Positions 1 to 41,990 of a stretch of DNA of 64,000 nt are shown here, piece after piece. Position 1 is the first letter of the stretch, and each line of letters opens with the position of its first letter. Made by a program: the position numbers and the translations under genes. This DNA comes from Ostreococcus lucimarinus. Its lineage: Eukaryota. The notes below the pieces were generated by a model. The model made no database searches, was not told the origin of the DNA, and worked only from the letters and a program-made list of their open reading frames with translations. The DNA is taken from assembly GCA_000092065.1 (NCBI GenBank), contig CP000592.1; one strand, written 5' to 3'.

Positions 1-665
1 TCGTCGCGGCTTATGAGCTCGTTGGAAAATGTCAAACCACGCATCAATCCTCGCTTTTTCAACCAGAAGATGGCGCAGAAAGATCCGCTGAAGAAAATTC
101 CCTCCACGCACGCGAAACCGACGAGACGCTCGGCGAAACTCGCGTCGCTACCGATCCATTTGAGCGCCCAATCCGCCTTCTTTGCCACGGTGGGCACCGT
201 GTGAATCGCCCGAAACAAGTCGGATTTCTTCTTTGGATCCTTAATGTACGTGTCCAAGAGCAACGAATACATCTCGCTGTGAATGTTTTCGATCGCGAGC
301 TGAAAGCCATAAAACGATCGAGCCTCCGGGAGCTGCACATCCGTCATGAACCGAGAGCATAAATTCTCCAACACGATGCCGTCGCTCGCGGCGAAAAACG
401 CCAACACGTGCGATATAAAGTGTTGCTCGTTATCGTTCAATGTGATCCAATCTCTGTAATCGTACGTCAAGTCGACCTCCTCCGCCGTCCAAAAACTCGC
501 CTCCGCCTTCTTATACATCTCCCAAACCTTCGCGTGCTTGATCGGAAACAAACAAAACCGATCGGGATTGTCTCGCAACAGCGGCTCCGCCGCGTCTCGC
601 TCCCGCGACGCCGTCGCCCGCGCCCTCGCCGCCTCCTGATCCGCCCTCGCCGCCCACGGCGACAT
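1..665 (-). CDS. RNR2: Ribonucleotide reductase small subunit R2. Partial: the C-terminal part runs past the window start. Start codon is ATG 665..663.
   Basis: Reverse-strand translation is continuous: [10 protein letters not shown]...[40 protein letters not shown]...[13 protein letters not shown]...[29 protein letters not shown]...[36 protein letters not shown]. These are the classic R2 di-iron and tyrosyl-radical motifs. The frame is open to position 1, so this ORF is not in the track. Confidence 0.9.
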
Positions 666-1351
666 CGCCGCTATGCGTTCCGCCACCTCCTCCAGCTCCA
701 AGTGCGTGCTCGACGCGCTCAGCGATTCGCTGCTCGACGTCCTTCGCGCGCGTCTCGCCGCCGCCTCTTCGCCGTCGCCCCCCCCTTTCGCCGCGTCCTC
801 GCCCACCGCCGCGTCTCCCGTCCCGTCCGCGCGCGCCTTCCCGCGCAACCACGTCCTCGGGTGCAAGTCCTCCACCGAATCCTTCACGTTCGTCATCATC
901 GCAAGCCTCGCGCGCGTTCGCCCCGTGCCCGCGCGTTCGATCGTCGCGCGCGAATCCCGTCGGAATTCCCTCCCGTCGCGCCGCCTCGCCGCGCGATCGC
1001 GACGCCGGTCGCGCGGATTCGCGTCGCGATCGCGTCGTCGTCGCGCGCTCTCGCGTCGTCGCGTCGCGTCGTCGCGTCGCGTCGTCGGCCGTCGAGGAAT
1101 CGCGACGACGACGGACGCGACGACGCGAATCGTCGACGCCGCGCGCGATCGCCGTCATAAATGGGTCTTTCGTGTGCCGAAATACGTACATCGATCCCTT
1201 GTCGAATCGTGACTCGAGAGAAGTCCCCCGGGCCGTCTCATGGTCCGTGTGCGTCTGACCGCACGCGAGTGAGACCGCGCGCGATCGCGAACGCGCGATC
1301 GCCGCGATCGACGCGCGCGACGTCTCGACGCGCCTCGATCGCGGCGTCGAC

Positions 1352-1524
1352 ATGGCGAAGGTCCCCGCGCGACTGCGAAGCGTGACGTACAGCCTGTCGC
1401 CCATGCGCACGGGCGTCATGCACGGCCTGTTCAAGGATTGGGCGTCGGGCATGGCGACGCGCGTCAAGGAGAACGCGGTCGACGCGGGCGTGTTCTGCGC
1501 GCTGCCGCTCGGCGCGACGGTGTG
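1352..1524 (+). CDS. QCR8: Ubiquinol-cytochrome c reductase (bc1 complex) subunit 8 (QCR8/UQCRQ), exon 1.
   Basis: ORF 1352 begins MAKVPARLRSVTYSLSPMRTGVMHGLFKDWASGMATRVKENAVDAGVFCALPLGATVW. A GTGCGT donor lies at 1525..1530 after a TG partial codon. Confidence 0.8.
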
Positions 1525-1769
1525 GTGCGTCGAAGCGAGACGACGACGACGCGAAACGGTGACGCGACGACGACGCGCGACGACGACGCGACAAAACGGG
1601 ACGGGACGGATGAGGGATCGCGGGGCAGAGGCGTAGGGTCGCCGGAGCGCGACGACGGGGGGGGCGAGCGAGAAGACACGACCGCGAACGATCGGTCAGG
1701 GCGCGTCGAGGGGGTGGTGCGCGCGAACGCGTGACTGACGAACGCGCGTTCGATCGCGATCGAACGCAG

Positions 1770-1818
1770 GTACGCGTTGAATTACAAGGAAAATGAAAAG
1801 TTGGAGCACCGATATTAA
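1770..1818 (+). CDS. QCR8: QCR8 exon 2. The 245-nt intron 1525..1769 has a GTGACTGAC branch at about 1731 and a CAG acceptor at 1767..1769.
   Basis: The splice joins TG+G to give W, then YALNYKENEKLEHRY and a stop. The spliced 73-aa product matches the conserved plant QCR8 pattern (...SP...G..KD...........W.....LV.P..G..WYA.YFKE.EKLEHRF). Confidence 0.75.
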
Positions 1819-1899
1819 ATTCGAGCGGCGCGCGCGAGCGAAGGGGTCGAGCGAACGACCGACGTCGCTCGCGCGGTAGAGCGCGTCTTAATTTAGAAT

Positions 1900-1904
1900 T
1901 GTAA
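1900..1904 (+). promoter_or_regulatory. TGTAA putative poly(A) signal, about 80 nt after the QCR8 stop.
   Basis: TGTAA is the chlorophyte poly(A) signal pentamer. The same motif recurs 15-160 nt downstream of several stops in this window. Confidence 0.4.
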
Positions 1905-2040
1905 CGTTTAGAAGGACGCGCGCGCGCGCGGTGGTCGCGACGTCGCGCGCGTGATCGAACCGCGGCGCGAGGGACCCTCGAGCGCGCGGCGCGCGCGGCG
2001 CGCGCCGAGCCGCACTCGCCGGCGCGCGTCGACGTCCCGG

Positions 2041-4218
2041 ATGTCGGACTCGGTCGCGCCCGGTAAGGATGACGACGACGCCGATGGGTTCTACGAGGAA
2101 GCGCCGCGCGAAGGCGGCGTCGGCGACGTCGCGCGCGAGGAAAACGGCGAGCGAAACCGCGCGTGGCCCGGTGTTGACGTGCAACAGCTCTCGCAAGCCT
2201 TCGCGCGCGTCGCGGGGTCGTTCGGGCGAGACACGATGGGCGTGCGTAGCCCGCAGTTCAGCGAGGAAGCGCACGAGGCGGCGTACGCGGCGGCGCGGGC
2301 GGATTATCAGGACGAACGGTTCGAGGCTGACCTGGCGCGCGCGATAAGCGCGTCGCTTGGGGACGAACAGCGCGACGCGCGGACGTCCACCGGCAGCGCG
2401 AACGAGAAAGGCGGGGATGAAGAGGCAGCCTTATTGCTCGAGGCGCGGCGACAGAGCTTGCGAGAGCGTTTCAGTGGGAGCGCGATGGCGGAACGGTTTT
2501 GGTCGACGTACTCGCTCAACTTTAGCGAGCGATTGGCCGACGGCTTTTTCTACCCGCATCCGAGCGATTGGGGGACGTTGAACGCCAAGGGGGGGAGATT
2601 ACCGAAATTCGAGTCGTTGCGCGCGGTGGAGGATTACCAGGGAGATCGCGAGGTGGTCATCGTTGATCGATGCGGCGACGTCTCGTTGGAAGAGTTTATG
2701 GCGTATTGTTTTGACGAAATTGGCCACATCGAGGATAGGTGTGACGCATCGCCTGAGCTCGCACGCCTCGTCGCCGAGCGCATGGGGGGCGCCGCGGAAA
2801 GCGACGACGCGCTGCGAGAGACCTGGGAAAGCGAGCGAGCGCGTTTGATCGAGGAACACGGTAGCTTGATTTTTCCAGTGGGATCAATGAAAGTGGGTTT
2901 GCAACGACATCGCGCCATTTTGTTCAAAGCCGTGGCAGACTTCCTTGAAATTCCTTCGCAGCTGTTGCGTGGGAAATTTTATTGCGGAGACGAGGAGGCG
3001 GTGATGATCATTGTGATGTGCGGTGGTATGAAGCGAATGCTTAATTTGATGCATGAGCCGGGTCGTATGCAGACTCCGTACAACTCAGATTCGACGCCGC
3101 CATCGAACGCTGGATCGACGTACGCGCCTACCGACAGCGGTCGAGAGTCACCAGACGTATTGGTGACACCATCTCGAGCGGAGGATACTAGAGAAGGCCA
3201 ACGTTTCGGCGTGATGTCTCCGGAAGACTTGCAAACGCCAGAGCAACCGAAGACTCCTTTGCGCCTCCAAGTCGCGGTCGATCTCACCATTGATCCGTCA
3301 CAAATTTTACTCGGAGAGCGCATCGGGATAGGTTCTTTCGGCGAAGTTCACCGAGCACTCTGGCGCGGTACAGAGGTTGCGGTGAAGAGATTTCTCGACC
3401 AGGATATTTCAAAAAATCTCCTCGACGACGTGACGTTTGAGGTAGACATCATGCGACGTCTGCGACATCCGAACGTCATCTTACTCATGGGCGCGGTCAC
3501 AGTACCTGGAAACCTATCCATCGTTACCGAGTTTTTGCACCGTGGATCACTTTTCAAACTTTTACATCGCGAACAAAGTCCAGCGCTGAAAGCGGCATTG
3601 GACAACCGTCGCAGGATGAGGATGGTCATGGATGTCATTCGCGGCATGCACTACTTGCACTCGTTTGAGCCGATGATAGTGCATCGCGACTTGAAGTCTC
3701 CAAACCTTCTCGTCGATAAGAGTTTTGTCGTGAAAGTGTGTGACTTTGGTTTATCGAGAATGAAGCGTAACACGTATCTCAGCTCAAAGACAAATGCGGG
3801 CACGCCGGAGTGGATGGCGCCCGAGGTGCTACGAAATGATGACAGCGACGAAAAGGCGGACATCTATTCGTTTGGGGTAATTTTATGGGAACTTGCCACG
3901 ATGCAAGAGCCTTGGTCAGGCTTGAATCCGATGCAAGTTGTCGGAGCGGTCGGTTTTGCGGGTAAGCAGCTCGAGATTCCAGCGGATATGGACGAAGTCA
4001 TCGCGAAGATGTGCCGCGATTGTTGGAAGACCAATCCTCGTGAGCGCCCGAGCTTTGAAGATTTGGCGACAGAAATGCGATCTGTACCCAAAGCTCCTAG
4101 TTTAGCGCAGAGCGATTCGAACGGAGCTATTAAGGAGCGAAGTCGACTCTCCGTGCCTCCGGTGCCGGTGTCCGAGCCACGGGGCGACTGGGAAGACGAG
4201 CGGTCGCGTGGTTGGTAA
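2041..4218 (+). CDS. Raf-like MAPKKK Ser/Thr kinase with an N-terminal EDR1/CTR1-type domain.
   Basis: EDR1 domain: FWSTYSLNFSERLADGFFYPHPSDWG...RHRAILFKAVADFLEIPSQLLRGKFYCG. Kinase motifs: GIGSFGEVHRALWRGTEVAVKRF, HRDLKSPNLLVD, DFGLSR, TPEWMAPE. First in-frame ATG is at 2041. The upstream part of ORF 1951 is R-rich and GTG-initiated. Confidence 0.85.
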   Translation: MSDSVAPGKDDDDADGFYEEAPREGGVGDVAREENGERNRAWPGVDVQQLSQAFARVAGSFGRDTMGVRSPQFSEEAHEAAYAAARADYQDERFEADLARAISASLGDEQRDARTSTGSANEKGGDEEAALLLEARRQSLRERFSGSAMAERFWSTYSLNFSERLADGFFYPHPSDWGTLNAKGGRLPKFESLRAVEDYQGDREVVIVDRCGDVSLEEFMAYCFDEIGHIEDRCDASPELARLVAERMGGAAESDDALRETWESERARLIEEHGSLIFPVGSMKVGLQRHRAILFKAVADFLEIPSQLLRGKFYCGDEEAVMIIVMCGGMKRMLNLMHEPGRMQTPYNSDSTPPSNAGSTYAPTDSGRESPDVLVTPSRAEDTREGQRFGVMSPEDLQTPEQPKTPLRLQVAVDLTIDPSQILLGERIGIGSFGEVHRALWRGTEVAVKRFLDQDISKNLLDDVTFEVDIMRRLRHPNVILLMGAVTVPGNLSIVTEFLHRGSLFKLLHREQSPALKAALDNRRRMRMVMDVIRGMHYLHSFEPMIVHRDLKSPNLLVDKSFVVKVCDFGLSRMKRNTYLSSKTNAGTPEWMAPEVLRNDDSDEKADIYSFGVILWELATMQEPWSGLNPMQVVGAVGFAGKQLEIPADMDEVIAKMCRDCWKTNPRERPSFEDLATEMRSVPKAPSLAQSDSNGAIKERSRLSVPPVPVSEPRGDWEDERSRGW

Positions 4219-4232
4219 TTGTACAGTGATAT

Positions 4233-4237
4233 TGTAA
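4233..4237 (+). promoter_or_regulatory. TGTAA poly(A) signal 15 nt after the kinase stop. The convergent carboxypeptidase stop is only 25 nt away.
   Basis: Sequence attgTGTAAcac. The two stops at 4218 and 4244 imply overlapping 3' UTRs. Confidence 0.4.
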
Positions 4238-4243
4238 CACGTT

Positions 4244-6001
4244 CTAGTAATCAATGTATTTCGCTTGTTGCGCCTCGACGACCCAATGTTGCATTTCTTT
4301 TTGAAACTCTTCATCGTTCATCGTTTCGAGCTTTGCGTTTGTGGGCATGAGTGGTGAAAAGGCCTCGTTGAAGAGGAGTTTTTTGATAAGCAACAAGCCC
4401 GTCTGCGGTCGAAACTGCGGCACCATGTGACCAGAGCCGTGCACGGTCGCAAAGGACAGGTTGTTTTCGTAGTCAATGACGTGACCGGCAAACTGCGGCC
4501 CAGCGTCTCTCGTGGCGAGGTTCGGACCATATAGTAACGGCTTTTCTTCGAGAAGAAATGCGGGTACGCCCGAGGCGTTCACGAAGTAGGCTCGCTGAGA
4601 GCCACCCTCGAGCTCTTTGAATCCGAGCTTGATTATGGCTGCGCGCGTACCTTCATACGATACGCACGGGTCGGTATCGCCGTTGAAAACGATCGTTCGT
4701 TCGAGTCTCGGCGCGAGCGTGCGGTAGAAATCAATCATGCTCGGCGTGTGTTTGTCCGCGCCCTCGTTACACGCCGCCCATACGCTGCTATACGACCAAT
4801 TTTCAGTTGGACCGGGCCAAGCTTTGGCGGGAGATTTCTCAACGTTGAGCGCTTTGCGGACATCATCACGCATCATCCATTGTGTCATCATATAATCAAG
4901 CGTGCCTGGAACGAACTCTCCGCCCTCTGCCATGGCTGCCGGCCCGAACAACGTGAGATCGTTCAGCCACGCGTAACGCCAGTCCTGAGAAAAGCCGTTG
5001 CTCGTTTGCCATAGAAACTTACGATGCGCGACGAGACACTCGGGCGAGCCTTTTCCCTTAGAGACCTCATCCGCGAAAATCTCTAGCAAAGACGTCGACT
5101 TGCGCTTCGCGGCGCCGCTCCATTCGCCGCGCATCAACGGCGACGCGTATCGATGTTCGCACTGATGCCAGAGCAAGTCGAACTCCTTGTCCGGGACGAA
5201 CCCATACTTGTGCCCGTACCACAACATAGACATTGAATTCCTCTGTGAATCGTTATCCGTGCACGGATCCCCCGTAGCGATGCCCGCGAGCGGAATCTTT
5301 GCGTCGTCGCTCGTCTGCGCGTCGTTGAAATCCAACAGTTCCCGCGCCAATGTCGGCACGTACACCCCCGCATACGACTCACCGGTGACGTAAAACTTAT
5401 TTGACCGTAGCTCTGGAAATTTTCGATGGAAGAAATCCACCACCGCCGCCGCCGCGTCTCGCGCCGCGCTCACGTCGTCGTTCGAGCAGTCGCCGCCAAC
5501 CGTCATCTCTTGGCAATAGCTCCATCCCACCCCCGCGGGCGACTCCAACGCCACCAAATTCGCATACTTCGTCCAAGCGAACGGATTTTCCATCAACCCA
5601 CCGCTCGCGTTCACCAACAGCGGGCCTTGTTCTTGCAGAAATCCGAGAATTGAGCTCGATCCCGGGCCTCCGTTCATCCACAACAGCGTGGGCGCGCGCG
5701 TCCAGTCGCCGTCGCGCTTCGCGGCGAACCAGTAGTGCAGCGCCGTCCCCGGCGTCGACGCCGACGCATCGAGAAATCCAGAATACTGCGTCGACGGCGG
5801 CGCGCCGTATCCCGGCAGCGTCGTCACCGCGTCGCCGTCGCGCGCCATCGCTCCTCCGCGCTCTTCGCGCCGTAATTCGACGCTCGCGCGCGTCCCTCGC
5901 GTCGTCGCGCGCGCGTCGCACGCCCCCGGCGCGACGACCGCGCACGCGAAGAGCGCCACCGCCGTCGCGCGCGTCGCGCGCGCGCGTCGCGTCGTCGTCA
6001 T
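4244..6001 (-). CDS. Serine carboxypeptidase (peptidase S10) with an N-terminal signal peptide.
   Basis: WMNGGPGSSS...GESYAGVYVP...DPC...HGSGHMVP. This is the S10 catalytic Ser-Asp-His context. Single ORF of 585 aa. Confidence 0.85.
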   Translation of the reverse strand: MTTTRRARATRATAVALFACAVVAPGACDARATTRGTRASVELRREERGGAMARDGDAVTTLPGYGAPPSTQYSGFLDASASTPGTALHYWFAAKRDGDWTRAPTLLWMNGGPGSSSILGFLQEQGPLLVNASGGLMENPFAWTKYANLVALESPAGVGWSYCQEMTVGGDCSNDDVSAARDAAAAVVDFFHRKFPELRSNKFYVTGESYAGVYVPTLARELLDFNDAQTSDDAKIPLAGIATGDPCTDNDSQRNSMSMLWYGHKYGFVPDKEFDLLWHQCEHRYASPLMRGEWSGAAKRKSTSLLEIFADEVSKGKGSPECLVAHRKFLWQTSNGFSQDWRYAWLNDLTLFGPAAMAEGGEFVPGTLDYMMTQWMMRDDVRKALNVEKSPAKAWPGPTENWSYSSVWAACNEGADKHTPSMIDFYRTLAPRLERTIVFNGDTDPCVSYEGTRAAIIKLGFKELEGGSQRAYFVNASGVPAFLLEEKPLLYGPNLATRDAGPQFAGHVIDYENNLSFATVHGSGHMVPQFRPQTGLLLIKKLLFNEAFSPLMPTNAKLETMNDEEFQKEMQHWVVEAQQAKYIDY

Positions 6002-32629: not shown

Positions 32630-32881
32630 GTCTTCGCTCTACGTCCGTCGTGCGCGCGCGCGTGGGAAAGGCGGTTCGCGCGCGTCGCGCCTCGCCCGCG
32701 AGGCCGGCGCGGCCGATGGTTCGTGTTTGGTCTCGCGATCCGTCGATCGCGCGCGCGACGCTCGATCGTCGCCGCGTCGATCGCGCGCGGCGCGTCGACC
32801 TCGACGCGTCGATCGATCGACCGCATCGTCGATCGATCGACGACCCGCGCGTCGGTCGACGCGGCGTCGGCACCGCGCGAC

Positions 32882-32911
<30 letters not shown>

Positions 32912-32912
<1 letters not shown>

Positions 32913-34246
32913 TGGACGACGATCGCGGACGACGCGGGCGAGGACGACGACGACGACGAGGCGGCGTGCGAGGCGGTGACGCGCTGCGCGCGCTCGGCCT
33001 CGGGCTCGGACTCGTCGCGACGGGGGCGCGCGCGGCGCGACGCGCGGGCGCGTTTGAAACGACCGAAACGACCTCGACGATGGCCGATGCGTTTTGGACG
33101 GTGGCGACGAACGCGATCGAACGCGCGTGGGCGCCGAGAACGCAGAGCGCGACGGTGACGCCGCGCGATGCGTTCGGCGCGGCACGGGCGACGGCGACGG
33201 CGCGAGAGGTCGGTGAGGCGGACGCGGCGACGCTCGCGCGTCGGTTTGAGCGCTGGTGCGTCGAACACGGAGTGGAGGAATATCTGCGAGACGGAGAGGA
33301 GTACGCGAAGCGATTGGCGATTTTCGTGGAGAACGCGGCGTTTGTGGTGGAGCACAACGCCAAGTACGTTTTGGGAGAGATTTCGCATTGGGTGGCGTTG
33401 AACGCCCTCGCGGCGACGACGCGGGAGGAGTTCAAGCGCATGCTCGGGTACAAGCCCGAGTTGCGCGACGCGACGCAAACCGTCGGAGCCACGCGCGATG
33501 CGGACGAATACAAGGCGAACTGGAAGTATGCCAGCGTCGAGCCACTGGAAAACGTCGATTGGGTCGAACGCGGCGCCGTGACGGCGCCGAAGAACCAAGG
33601 ACAGTGCGGCTCGTGCTGGGCGTTTTCGACGACGGGCGCGATCGAGGGCATCAATCAAATTCGTACTGGCAGGCTCGTGTCGCTCTCTGAACAAGAGCTC
33701 GTGTCGTGTTCGACCCAGAACATGGCGTGCAACGGTGGACTCATGGATAACGCGTTCAAATGGGTGCAAAAGAACGGCGGAATTGACTCTGAATTTCAGT
33801 ACCCTTACGCCGCGGAGAAGCTCTCGTGCAACAAATTCAAGCTTCAACTCCACGTCGCCACCATCGACGGGTTCGAGGACGTACCTCCGGGAGATGAGAA
33901 AGAGCTCGAGAAAGCTGTGTCGCAACAACCTGTTAGCATCGCCATCGAGGCCGACACAAAAGCGTTTATGCTCTACCAAGGCGGCGTTTTCGATTCCAAA
34001 GAGTGCGGTTCTCAAGTCGATCACGGCGTTCTCGTCGTCGGTTACGGCTACGACGATCATCCCAACGCAACGGAAGCGACGCACCATCACCACAAAAACC
34101 ACCACAGGCACTTCTGGAAAGTCAAGAACTCGTGGGGCAATCAGTGGGGCGAAGGTGGTTTCATTCGCATGGCTCGACGAATCAGCGCTGAAACGGGTCA
34201 GTGCGGAATCACGACGGCACCATCCTTCCCGACGAAGAGCGCGTGA
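32912..34246 (+). CDS. Papain-family (cathepsin L-like) cysteine protease with a signal peptide, an I29 propeptide and a His-rich C-terminal insert.
   Basis: [12 protein letters not shown]...FVVEHNAKY (I29 domain), [17 protein letters not shown] (catalytic Cys), [11 protein letters not shown] (His), [15 protein letters not shown]. Insert: [17 protein letters not shown]. Confidence 0.85.
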
Positions 34247-34615
34247 TTTCTACTTTACAAAGACGATACGATTTTCATACTTGTACGATACGATTCTGTA
34301 AACTAAAACGATACCATACGTCGATGTTGTGATACAATTACGCTTTGATTCTTGCAAATTTCCTTCTAGGTTGTTCTATTTCCTTAGCTCGTAACGCCTA
34401 CAGTTCGTCAAATCGTCAGTCAAGCTGGTGAGATCGGTGCGTGATTTCTCCCAGCACATTCGCGGCACACGCGCGAGGAAGCTCAGAAGGATCCATTGGT
34501 ATTTACTAGTTTCACCGAGCTTGCTCTCACCGTAGTAGTGCGAAAACGAGCGCAATCATCATCGCTTCCTCGCGTTGGATCGATCTCAACGACGACGATG
34601 ACGACGACATCAGGA

Positions 34616-34685
34616 AAGGCTCAGTCCTATCGATCGTTTATCATGGGTAATCAGGATTAGCATGATTATAAGTCATCATCGCCTC
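34616..34685 (-). ncRNA. Candidate C/D-box snoRNA of about 70 nt, 105 nt downstream of the LSm1 stop on the same strand.
   Basis: Minus strand reads gaGGC-ATGATGA-cttataatcatgctaatc-CTGA-ttacccATGATAaacgatcgatagga-CTGA-GCCTT. The boxes are a canonical C box (AUGAUGA), D' (CUGA), a degenerate C' (AUGAUA) and D (CUGA). A 4-5 bp terminal stem (GAGGC/GCCTT) brings C and D together. Confidence 0.35.
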
Positions 34686-34789
34686 TGTTCCGTCTTCGTC
34701 GTCCTCGTCGTCGCCGTCGAGCGATCGTCGCGTCTTCAATCTCCACACGCACCTCTCGTCGTCCCATGCGCCCCCTTTGCGTTCGATCA

Positions 34790-35170
34790 TCACTCATCTA
34801 AAAAGTCCATTCGTTTCAAGATGTCTCCCTTCATCGCCTCCGCGGTCTGATCCGCCTCCCTCGCCCGTATGATCTCCGCGTTGTCCACCTCAATCAACCC
34901 TTCCGTGCCGTCCAAGTCCCCGTTCGCCCCGACGTCGCCCATGAGCACGACGTTCTCGCCTCGCACGATGTACAATCCGAGTGGGATATCGCTGAACATC
35001 TTTCCGACGATGATGCGCTCGACCGCGCTCTCGAGGACGATGTTTGCGAATTGGTCGAACGATCGCAGCGTGCCGATGATGTTCGAGCCGTCGCGCAGCG
35101 CGACGAGCAGGCGCTTGTCCAGGTTCTCCACCAGGCTCGCCACCGCGCTGAGATGCCACGTGTCCGTCAT
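34790..35170 (-). CDS. LSM1: U6 snRNA-associated Sm-like protein LSm1.
   Basis: LLVALRDGSNIIGTLRSFDQFANIVLESAVERIIVGKMFSDIPLGLYIVRGENVVLMG matches the LSm1 Sm1/Sm2 motifs. Confidence 0.85.
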   Translation of the reverse strand: MTDTWHLSAVASLVENLDKRLLVALRDGSNIIGTLRSFDQFANIVLESAVERIIVGKMFSDIPLGLYIVRGENVVLMGDVGANGDLDGTEGLIEVDNAEIIRAREADQTAEAMKGDILKRMDFLDE

Positions 35171-41861: not shown

Positions 41862-41990
41862 GTGCGTGAAGGCGATGCGAAAAGTGATACTTTTTTGTTT
41901 TGATGCGTCGCGCTATAGCGCGTGTGATGGATTCGACGACGCGATTCGTTTGACTGACGCGAAGGATAACGTCGCCTCTCGCGCGCGCAG

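Follow-up and report, generated by a model that had tools for sequence, protein, structure and literature searches.

The spacer downstream of LSm1 in Ostreococcus lucimarinus carries, on the minus strand, a set of C, D', C' and D boxes that had been put forward, on the basis of the letters alone, as a box C/D snoRNA candidate. It lies in a 64,000-nucleotide stretch of contig CP000592.1 (assembly GCA_000092065.1), referred to here as the window. The locus raises the question of whether this element is a genuine guide RNA, which nucleotides it would modify, and whether it is an independent gene or a product of the LSm1 transcript.

Read on the minus strand, the element, designated unit 1, is AGAGGC-G-AUGAUGA-CUUAUAAUCAUGCUAAUC-CUGA-UUACCC-AUGAUA-AACGAUCGAUAGGA-CUGA-GCCUUU (34686-34615; Table 1), and the boxes, guides and terminal stem proposed for it are correct in every detail. 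The proposed position, about 105 nt past the LSm1 stop in the same orientation, also matches, as unit 1 begins 105 nt after the stop codon within a 543-nt spacer before a convergent protease gene. The sequence features that define C/D snoRNAs were all found in unit 1: C and D boxes, D' and C' boxes, a terminal stem, and guides with targets. We scanned both strands of the window for RUGAUGA with CUGA 45-130 nt beyond, the whole flanked by a stem of 4 bp or more. Only unit 1 and a second element, unit 2, were obtained, against a chance rate of 0.23 matches per window, or 0.01 with internal D' and C' boxes (200 dinucleotide shuffles). The terminal stem of unit 1 was seen in both the minimum free energy (MFE) and the centroid structure. 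The overall stability of unit 1 is unremarkable, as expected for an RNA whose guides must stay unpaired. On these features, we regard minus 34686-34615 as a genuine box C/D methylation-guide snoRNA of the ordinary, standard type.

Table 1. Features of the LSm1 spacer and its surroundings (positions in the window)
Feature	Position	Strand	Basis or detail
LSm1 coding sequence, 126 aa, stop TGA 34792-34790, proposed host gene	34790..35170	minus	ORF
Putative 3'-UTR intron, 355 nt, enclosing both snoRNAs	34752..34398	minus	published consensus match
Putative intron 5' splice site GTGCGTG	34752-34746	minus	context gagag/GTGCGTGtgg (slash, splice junction)
Extended external hairpin around unit 1	34585..34721	minus	GAC-repeat arm 34721-34697 and GUC-repeat arm 34609-34585
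Unit 1, reported C/D snoRNA, Ot-CDsno96 ortholog, terminal stem included	34615..34686	minus	
Unit 1 terminal stem, 6 bp (one G-U counted)	34686-34681 / 34620-34615	minus	
Unit 1 C box AUGAUGA	34679-34673	minus	sequence
Unit 1 D' guide CUUAUAAUCAUGCUAAUC	34672-34655	minus	core CAUGCUAAU
Unit 1 D' box CUGA	34654-34651	minus	sequence
Unit 1 C' box AUGAUA	34644-34639	minus	sequence
Unit 1 D guide AACGAUCGAUAGGA	34638-34625	minus	core GAUCGAUAG
Unit 1 D box CUGA	34624-34621	minus	sequence
Unit 2, second C/D snoRNA, Ot-CDsno97 ortholog (snoR41Y / SNORD62 / snR41)	34472..34574	minus	11-bp terminal stem
Unit 2 C box	34562-34556	minus	
Unit 2 D guide	34499-34487	minus	
Unit 2 D box	34486-34483	minus	
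Putative intron branch motif GACTGACG, branch A 34416	34421-34414	minus	
Putative intron 3' splice site AG	34399-34398	minus	ttGACTGACGatttgacgaactgtAG ending at 34398
Papain-like cysteine protease gene, convergent, bounds spacer	32723..34246	plus	ORF; Pfam Inhibitor_I29 and Peptidase_C1

Both units have described relatives. The O. tauri snoRNA transcriptome (Bousquet et al. 2020, PMC7671301) gives, in its Supplementary File 3, the sequences of Ot-CDsno96 and Ot-CDsno97, which are located at chr12:277235-277403 of that species. The two RNAs are uncapped and classed as intergenic cluster 9 ('cl 9 - IG'), with abundances of ~600-4800 TPM for Ot-CDsno96 and ~210-390 TPM for Ot-CDsno97 (PMC7671301). 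The targets predicted there are U6.A51 and 18S.A770 for Ot-CDsno96 (orthologs SNORD8/9 and snR53) and 18S.A526 for Ot-CDsno97 (orthologs SNORD62 and At-snoR41Y) (PMC7671301). Unit 1 resembles Ot-CDsno96 in its site downstream of LSm1, its neighbour snoRNA, its guide cores and its boxes, and the two are about equal in length (67-69 nt), whereas they diverge in their flanks and over the 5' part of the D' guide. We assign units 1 and 2 as the orthologs of Ot-CDsno96 and Ot-CDsno97. The identity proposed for unit 1 is supported by the fact that its O. tauri ortholog is an abundant, uncapped RNA of ~67 nt (PMC7671301). Earlier work had already described the family, together with its targets in U6 and 18S, and had reported both that it is expressed in the sister species and that it occurs in O. 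lucimarinus. Ot-CDsno96 was published as intergenic, not intronic, with no 25S target given for its D guide. The sequence-only reading had overlooked unit 2, the intron signals in the spacer and the earlier description of the family.

The printed Ot-CDsno96 sequence shows three differences from O. tauri-like metagenome contigs (L008:3100-3170): its guide has an additional A, a C is missing ahead of the D' box, and the C' box reads CUGAUA in place of GUGAUA. With the C missing, the methylation register would shift by one, against the paper's own U6.A51 prediction (PMC7671301). Either an error in transcription or a difference between strains could account for the discrepancy.

Concerning family membership, no Rfam matches at curated thresholds were found in the window or in eight orthologous loci. 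In a permissive scan of the spacer, unit 1 aligned with snoR53Y (RF01279) at 27 bits (threshold 43) and with U6-53/MBII-28 (RF00377) at 22.3 bits (threshold 36), and unit 2 aligned with snoR41 at 24 bits via the guide ACCAAUGGAUCCUUCUGA. The guide CAUGCUAAUxCUGA is common to unit 1, snoR53Y and U6-53 in these alignments. As the scores are under the Rfam gathering thresholds, unit 1 is filed as a guide-defined functional ortholog and not as a covariance-model member; by its D' guide we place it functionally in the SNORD8/9 - snR53 - snoR53Y group. Arabidopsis snoR53Y has the same D' guide and the same dual targeting of 18S and U6, but the D guide of unit 1 is unrelated and the genomic context different. 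Human SNORD8/SNORD9 (mgU6-53; snoU6-53 in RF00377), which guide U6-Am53, contain the same antisense element and are longer (Rfam model 110 nt). Arabidopsis RiboMeth-seq assigned SnoR53Y to 18S-Am801 and U6-Am48, and the dual use of this guide is therefore experimentally backed in plants.

Orthologous loci were retrieved via LSm1 homologs. In Ostreococcus these represented another clade (L007) and O. tauri-like contigs (L008, L009), and the others were from a low-GC, Bathycoccus-like lineage (L014), two Micromonas lineages (L010/L011 and L012/L013), a Micromonas-like (L048) and a Mantoniella-like (L047) genome, and a deeper lineage (L049). One locus, L050, was excluded from the comparisons (65% LSm1 identity; it lacks the neighbouring protease gene and shows no more than a degenerate unit-2-like element). 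The spacer is ~66% identical over three Ostreococcus clades and contains two nearly invariant islands, which are the two C/D units; the boxes and both guides of unit 1 are invariant in these clades. Unit 1 homologs occupy the same LSm1 spacer in nine Mamiellophyceae lineages, with L050 as the exception, and the synteny with the protease gene is retained in nearly all lineages. The D box CUGA is invariant across all homologs, and every locus but L050 contains the D-guide core GAUCGAUAG. The C box is conserved, with the variants UGAUGU, UGAUGG and UGAUGC in other lineages. The D' box is CUGA throughout Ostreococcus and in L014 and UUGA or AUGA in L047, L048 and L049, and the C' box RUGAUA is conserved within Ostreococcus. 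The D'-guide core CAUGCUAAU is found in most lineages; in the two Micromonas lineages (L010-L013) this U6/18S guide has degenerated while the D guide is retained. The order of units 1 and 2 is swapped in the Micromonas-type loci (L010/L011, L012/L013, L048) and is as in Ostreococcus in L014, L047 and L049. Table S5 of the O. tauri study records both snoRNAs for O. lucimarinus and O. mediterraneus and scores them as missing in Bathycoccus and Micromonas (PMC7671301). The syntenic homologs with the same guide cores (L014, L010, L012, L047-L049) show these absences to be BLASTN false negatives.

The terminal stems change in sequence among lineages yet stay complementary (GAGGC/GCCUU, CGAGAC/GUCUCG, GGGCGAGGC/GUCUCGCCC). 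As the spacing between stem and box varies by 1-2 nt between lineages, a duplex-energy permutation test replaced fixed-register covariation counting. Cognate flanks gave a mean of -12.2 kcal/mol and non-cognate flanks -6.7 kcal/mol, and 0 of 3002 permutations reached the observed mean (nine lineages). The terminal stem of unit 1 is kept by compensatory changes. Together with the conservation of the unit, the shuffle scan and the expression of the ortholog, this effectively refutes the notion that the motif arrangement is due to chance or is a dead snoRNA copy, to which we attach practically no weight.

The targets of the guides were then sought by an ungapped, snoscan-like search against a full rDNA unit and the published O. 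tauri snRNAs. Ostreococcus-type rDNA was found independently of the guides with the presumed sequence of an 18S FISH probe; 5 of 32 matches were rDNA, and two extend through the LSU. The assignment of this rDNA to the genus rests on the probe and on the exact agreement of five site numbers published for O. tauri. Two metagenome contigs, L034 and L036, carry complete or near-complete Ostreococcus-type rDNA units whose 18S sequences show 12 differences over 1770 positions, and in L034 a flank of ~8 kb encodes a RanGAP-like protein and a helicase-like protein.

A comparison with target RNAs had been suggested along with the original proposal, and both guides of unit 1 proved complementary to rRNA or snRNA. 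The D' guide core CAUGCUAAU pairs with Ot-U6 at GAUUA*GCAUG (10 Watson-Crick (WC) pairs and 1 GU) and with 18S at position 770 (9 WC and 1 GU). The D guide pairs with the LSU at GGCCUA*UCGAUCCUUUAG through 10 WC pairs (guide positions 2-11), followed by one mismatch and 4 WC pairs. All three targets place an A opposite guide position 5. The equivalent 18S site in yeast, Am796, is guided by snR53; yeast U6 differs in sequence at the A53-equivalent position, so that snR53 serves 18S only. For unit 2, the D guide ACCAAUGGAUCCUU pairs with 18S-A526 (12 WC and 1 GU), and the 18S positions that we found, 770 and 526, are identical to the published numbers (PMC7671301). Arabidopsis SnoR41Y also serves 25S-Um1067, but no complementarity recurring across the lineages was found for a second guide in unit 2. 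When guides were shuffled, 41, 31 and 5 of 1000 matched the observed scores (31 being the value for the unit 1 D guide, with 10 WC). Each guide-target match is thus only modestly significant when taken alone, and the support comes from the matches, the orthology and the conservation combined.

Using the anchor sites G2647, G2623 and A2472 of the O. tauri study, the LSU target is numbered 25S-A2590 (O. tauri; ~A2758 in yeast). It is distinct from human 28S-Um4306, as a review table equates Um4306 with yeast Um2729. An LSU segment considered as an early guess for the D-guide target, UUCCUAUCAUUG (as in ceN53), was rejected, as only 7 nt fit the real rDNA. The D guide may instead be an orphan, or the guide GAUCGAUAGG may act on an RNA other than 25S, with the match at A2590 being fortuitous. 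Consistent with this, 25S-A2590 has no mapped counterpart in the methylation maps of Arabidopsis, tomato, tobacco or yeast, the site does not appear in the O. tauri snoRNA paper or its supplements, whose authors give no such target (PMC7671301), and the 31 in 1000 shuffled guides mentioned above find a site with 10 WC pairs within the target set. On the other hand, the core of the D guide is the most conserved part of the unit 1 RNA across the class, and the limits of its conservation (positions 2/3 to 11, with position 12 varying) coincide with those of the duplex. The 9-mer complement at 25S-A2590 is its sole occurrence in two rDNA contigs of 13-15 kb, and the next-best site of the guide reaches 6 WC pairs only. 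The target segment itself is universally conserved in the LSU, as seen in the sequences from yeast and Arabidopsis. The pairing falls to 9 bp in two Micromonas lineages. Weighing these points, we consider an orphan guide the less likely case, and that the unit 1 D guide directs 25S-Am2590 is a reasonable, though unproven, prediction that is probably correct.

As for the gene next to unit 1, LSm1 is a member of the cytoplasmic LSm1-7 decay complex and not of the U6-bound LSm2-8 ring. Because LSm1 acts in cytoplasmic mRNA decay, the presence of a U6 guide beside a gene named 'U6 snRNA-associated' is probably a coincidence. The LSm1 protein encoded here (Pfam LSM) is identical to O. lucimarinus CCE9901 XP_001420788.1, 'U6 snRNA-associated Sm-like protein LSm1'. 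Unit 2 lies 40 nt downstream of unit 1, and its end is 85 nt before a putative 3' splice site.

With regard to the origin of the two snoRNAs, the sequence-only reading had left two options, namely that they form a gene of their own or that they are processed from the LSm1 3' UTR. O. lucimarinus introns outside chromosome 2 have an atypical 5' splice consensus, GTGCGTG, and the branch motif ACTGAC is present in 87% of EST-confirmed introns, with the extended form GACTGACG in 66.5% (Irimia and Roy, PMC2483917). In the LSm1 spacer, both signals match the published non-chromosome-2 consensus exactly, on the LSm1 sense strand and on either side of the snoRNA pair. Strict consensus triples occur four times in the window, against 0.23 in shuffles; the other three behave as real coding introns, since removal of each restores an ORF (130-159 open codons). 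The intron of RPS25 in the same window shares these splice signals. In the three Ostreococcus clades, AGAGGUG is invariant between the LSm1 stop and unit 1, and ACTGAC followed by YAG is found after unit 2. With relaxed signals, the snoRNA pair is bracketed in the sense orientation in 9 of 9 lineages and in the antisense orientation in 0 of 9, with a per-locus chance of 0.2-4.5%, probabilities that are optimistic as the patterns were defined after inspection of the data.

These observations bear on the possibility that the pair is an independent, intergenic dicistronic gene with its own promoter and a polycistronic precursor, LSm1 being a mere neighbour. This corresponds to the published class of the O. 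tauri pair ('cl 9 - IG', uncapped; PMC7671301), and intergenic clusters transcribed as polycistrons are frequent in O. tauri and in plants. An independent gene, however, would not account for the exact species-specific 5' splice and branch consensus around the pair, nor for the same layout on the sense strand alone in every lineage. The 5' splice site of several lineages is only 4-38 nt past the LSm1 stop, a distance too short to accommodate a first exon and a promoter of the pair's own, so that such a promoter would need to lie inside the LSm1 coding sequence. Moreover, the linkage to LSm1 persists despite the swapped order of the snoRNAs. We therefore consider an independent gene improbable. 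The most economical reading, and in our view a probable one, has LSm1 as the host gene, with both snoRNAs released from a spliced 3'-UTR intron. Hosting by LSm1 would explain why the linkage has survived the change in snoRNA order, and it fits the uncapped state of the O. tauri snoRNAs. Of the two origins initially offered, processing from the LSm1 3' UTR is thus favoured, specifically by way of a spliced intron, and the independent gene has lost ground. A 2026 O. tauri telomere-to-telomere (T2T) preprint does not discuss UTR introns or cluster 9, and neither UTR introns nor snoRNAs are mentioned in the O. lucimarinus EST paper.

Elsewhere in the window, probable coding introns with GTGCGTG and ACTGAC or GACTGACG are located at +41862-41990, -53585-53469, -47651-47507 and, in RPS25, ~-32223-32001; removing each restores an ORF.

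A further route from the LSm1 transcript has to be considered in view of the stems around the snoRNAs. Unit 1 sits in an extended external hairpin with an MFE of -52.6 kcal/mol (z = -3.3), and 0 of 200 shuffles were as stable. External stems are substrates of Rnt1/RNase III-like processing in yeast. The snoRNAs might accordingly be cut from an unspliced LSm1 3' UTR or read-through transcript by such endonucleases, the intron-like signals being unused, and the long hairpin at unit 1 and the 11-bp stem at unit 2 would be suitable for this. This route leaves the class-wide conservation of the splice signals unexplained, and the long GAC/GUC hairpin was seen only in O. lucimarinus, the extensions in other lineages being shorter (~9 bp). 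We regard it as very unlikely. Under the preferred intronic origin, the GAC/GUC hairpin may act as a stem in the precursor and help snoRNP assembly on a snoRNA far from the branch point.

Taken as a whole, the best explanation, in which we have considerable confidence, is that unit 1 is a guide snoRNA orthologous to Ot-CDsno96, with U6/18S targets, a likely 25S target and a probable origin in an LSm1 intron. As a fibrillarin snoRNP, unit 1 would direct 2'-O-methylation opposite the fifth guide position upstream of the D' or D box. Its D' guide would select the A in GAUUA*GCAUG of U6 (the equivalent of human A53) and in the same motif of 18S (A770), and its D guide would most likely select 25S-A2590 (GGCCUA*UCGAUCC). 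Unit 1 is probably not transcribed on its own and would share the 355-nt LSm1 intron with unit 2, the 18S-A526 guide. After splicing, both snoRNAs would be freed by debranching and then by exonucleolytic trimming up to the terminal stems. The splicing of the intron, the methylation of 25S-A2590 and the processing route are steps that we infer.

More than one snoRNA in a single spliceosomal intron of a protein-coding host, in an uncapped state, is also found in O. tauri clusters 3 and 5 and in rice intronic clusters. Unlike those clusters, the putative LSm1 intron lies wholly after the stop codon, and its arrangement is conserved across the algal class. Animal snoRNA hosts with introns downstream of the stop codon are known targets of nonsense-mediated mRNA decay (NMD). 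We can imagine, as a speculation that we hold to be quite improbable, that LSm1 serves a dual purpose throughout Mamiellophyceae: the 3'-UTR intron would be kept as the only source of two guides, one of them for a lineage-specific 25S-Am2590, and the LSm1 mRNA, being spliced beyond its stop codon, would be marked for NMD. The dosage of a decay factor would then be tied to snoRNA output, forming an autoregulatory loop between mRNA turnover and the modification of the ribosome and spliceosome.

Unit 1 itself adds little to published knowledge. Beyond the O. tauri paper, we infer the probable hosting of the pair by an LSm1 3'-UTR intron and 25S-A2590 as the target of the D guide. The orthologs in Bathycoccus-like, Micromonas and Mantoniella-like genomes are useful for picoalgal annotation. 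If the intron is true, the count of intronic versus independent clusters would change in a very compact genome, and LSm1 would provide an example of a protein-coding snoRNA host with the intron beyond its stop codon. The most conserved guide of unit 1 points to an unmapped, predicted 2'-O-methylation at 25S-A2590.
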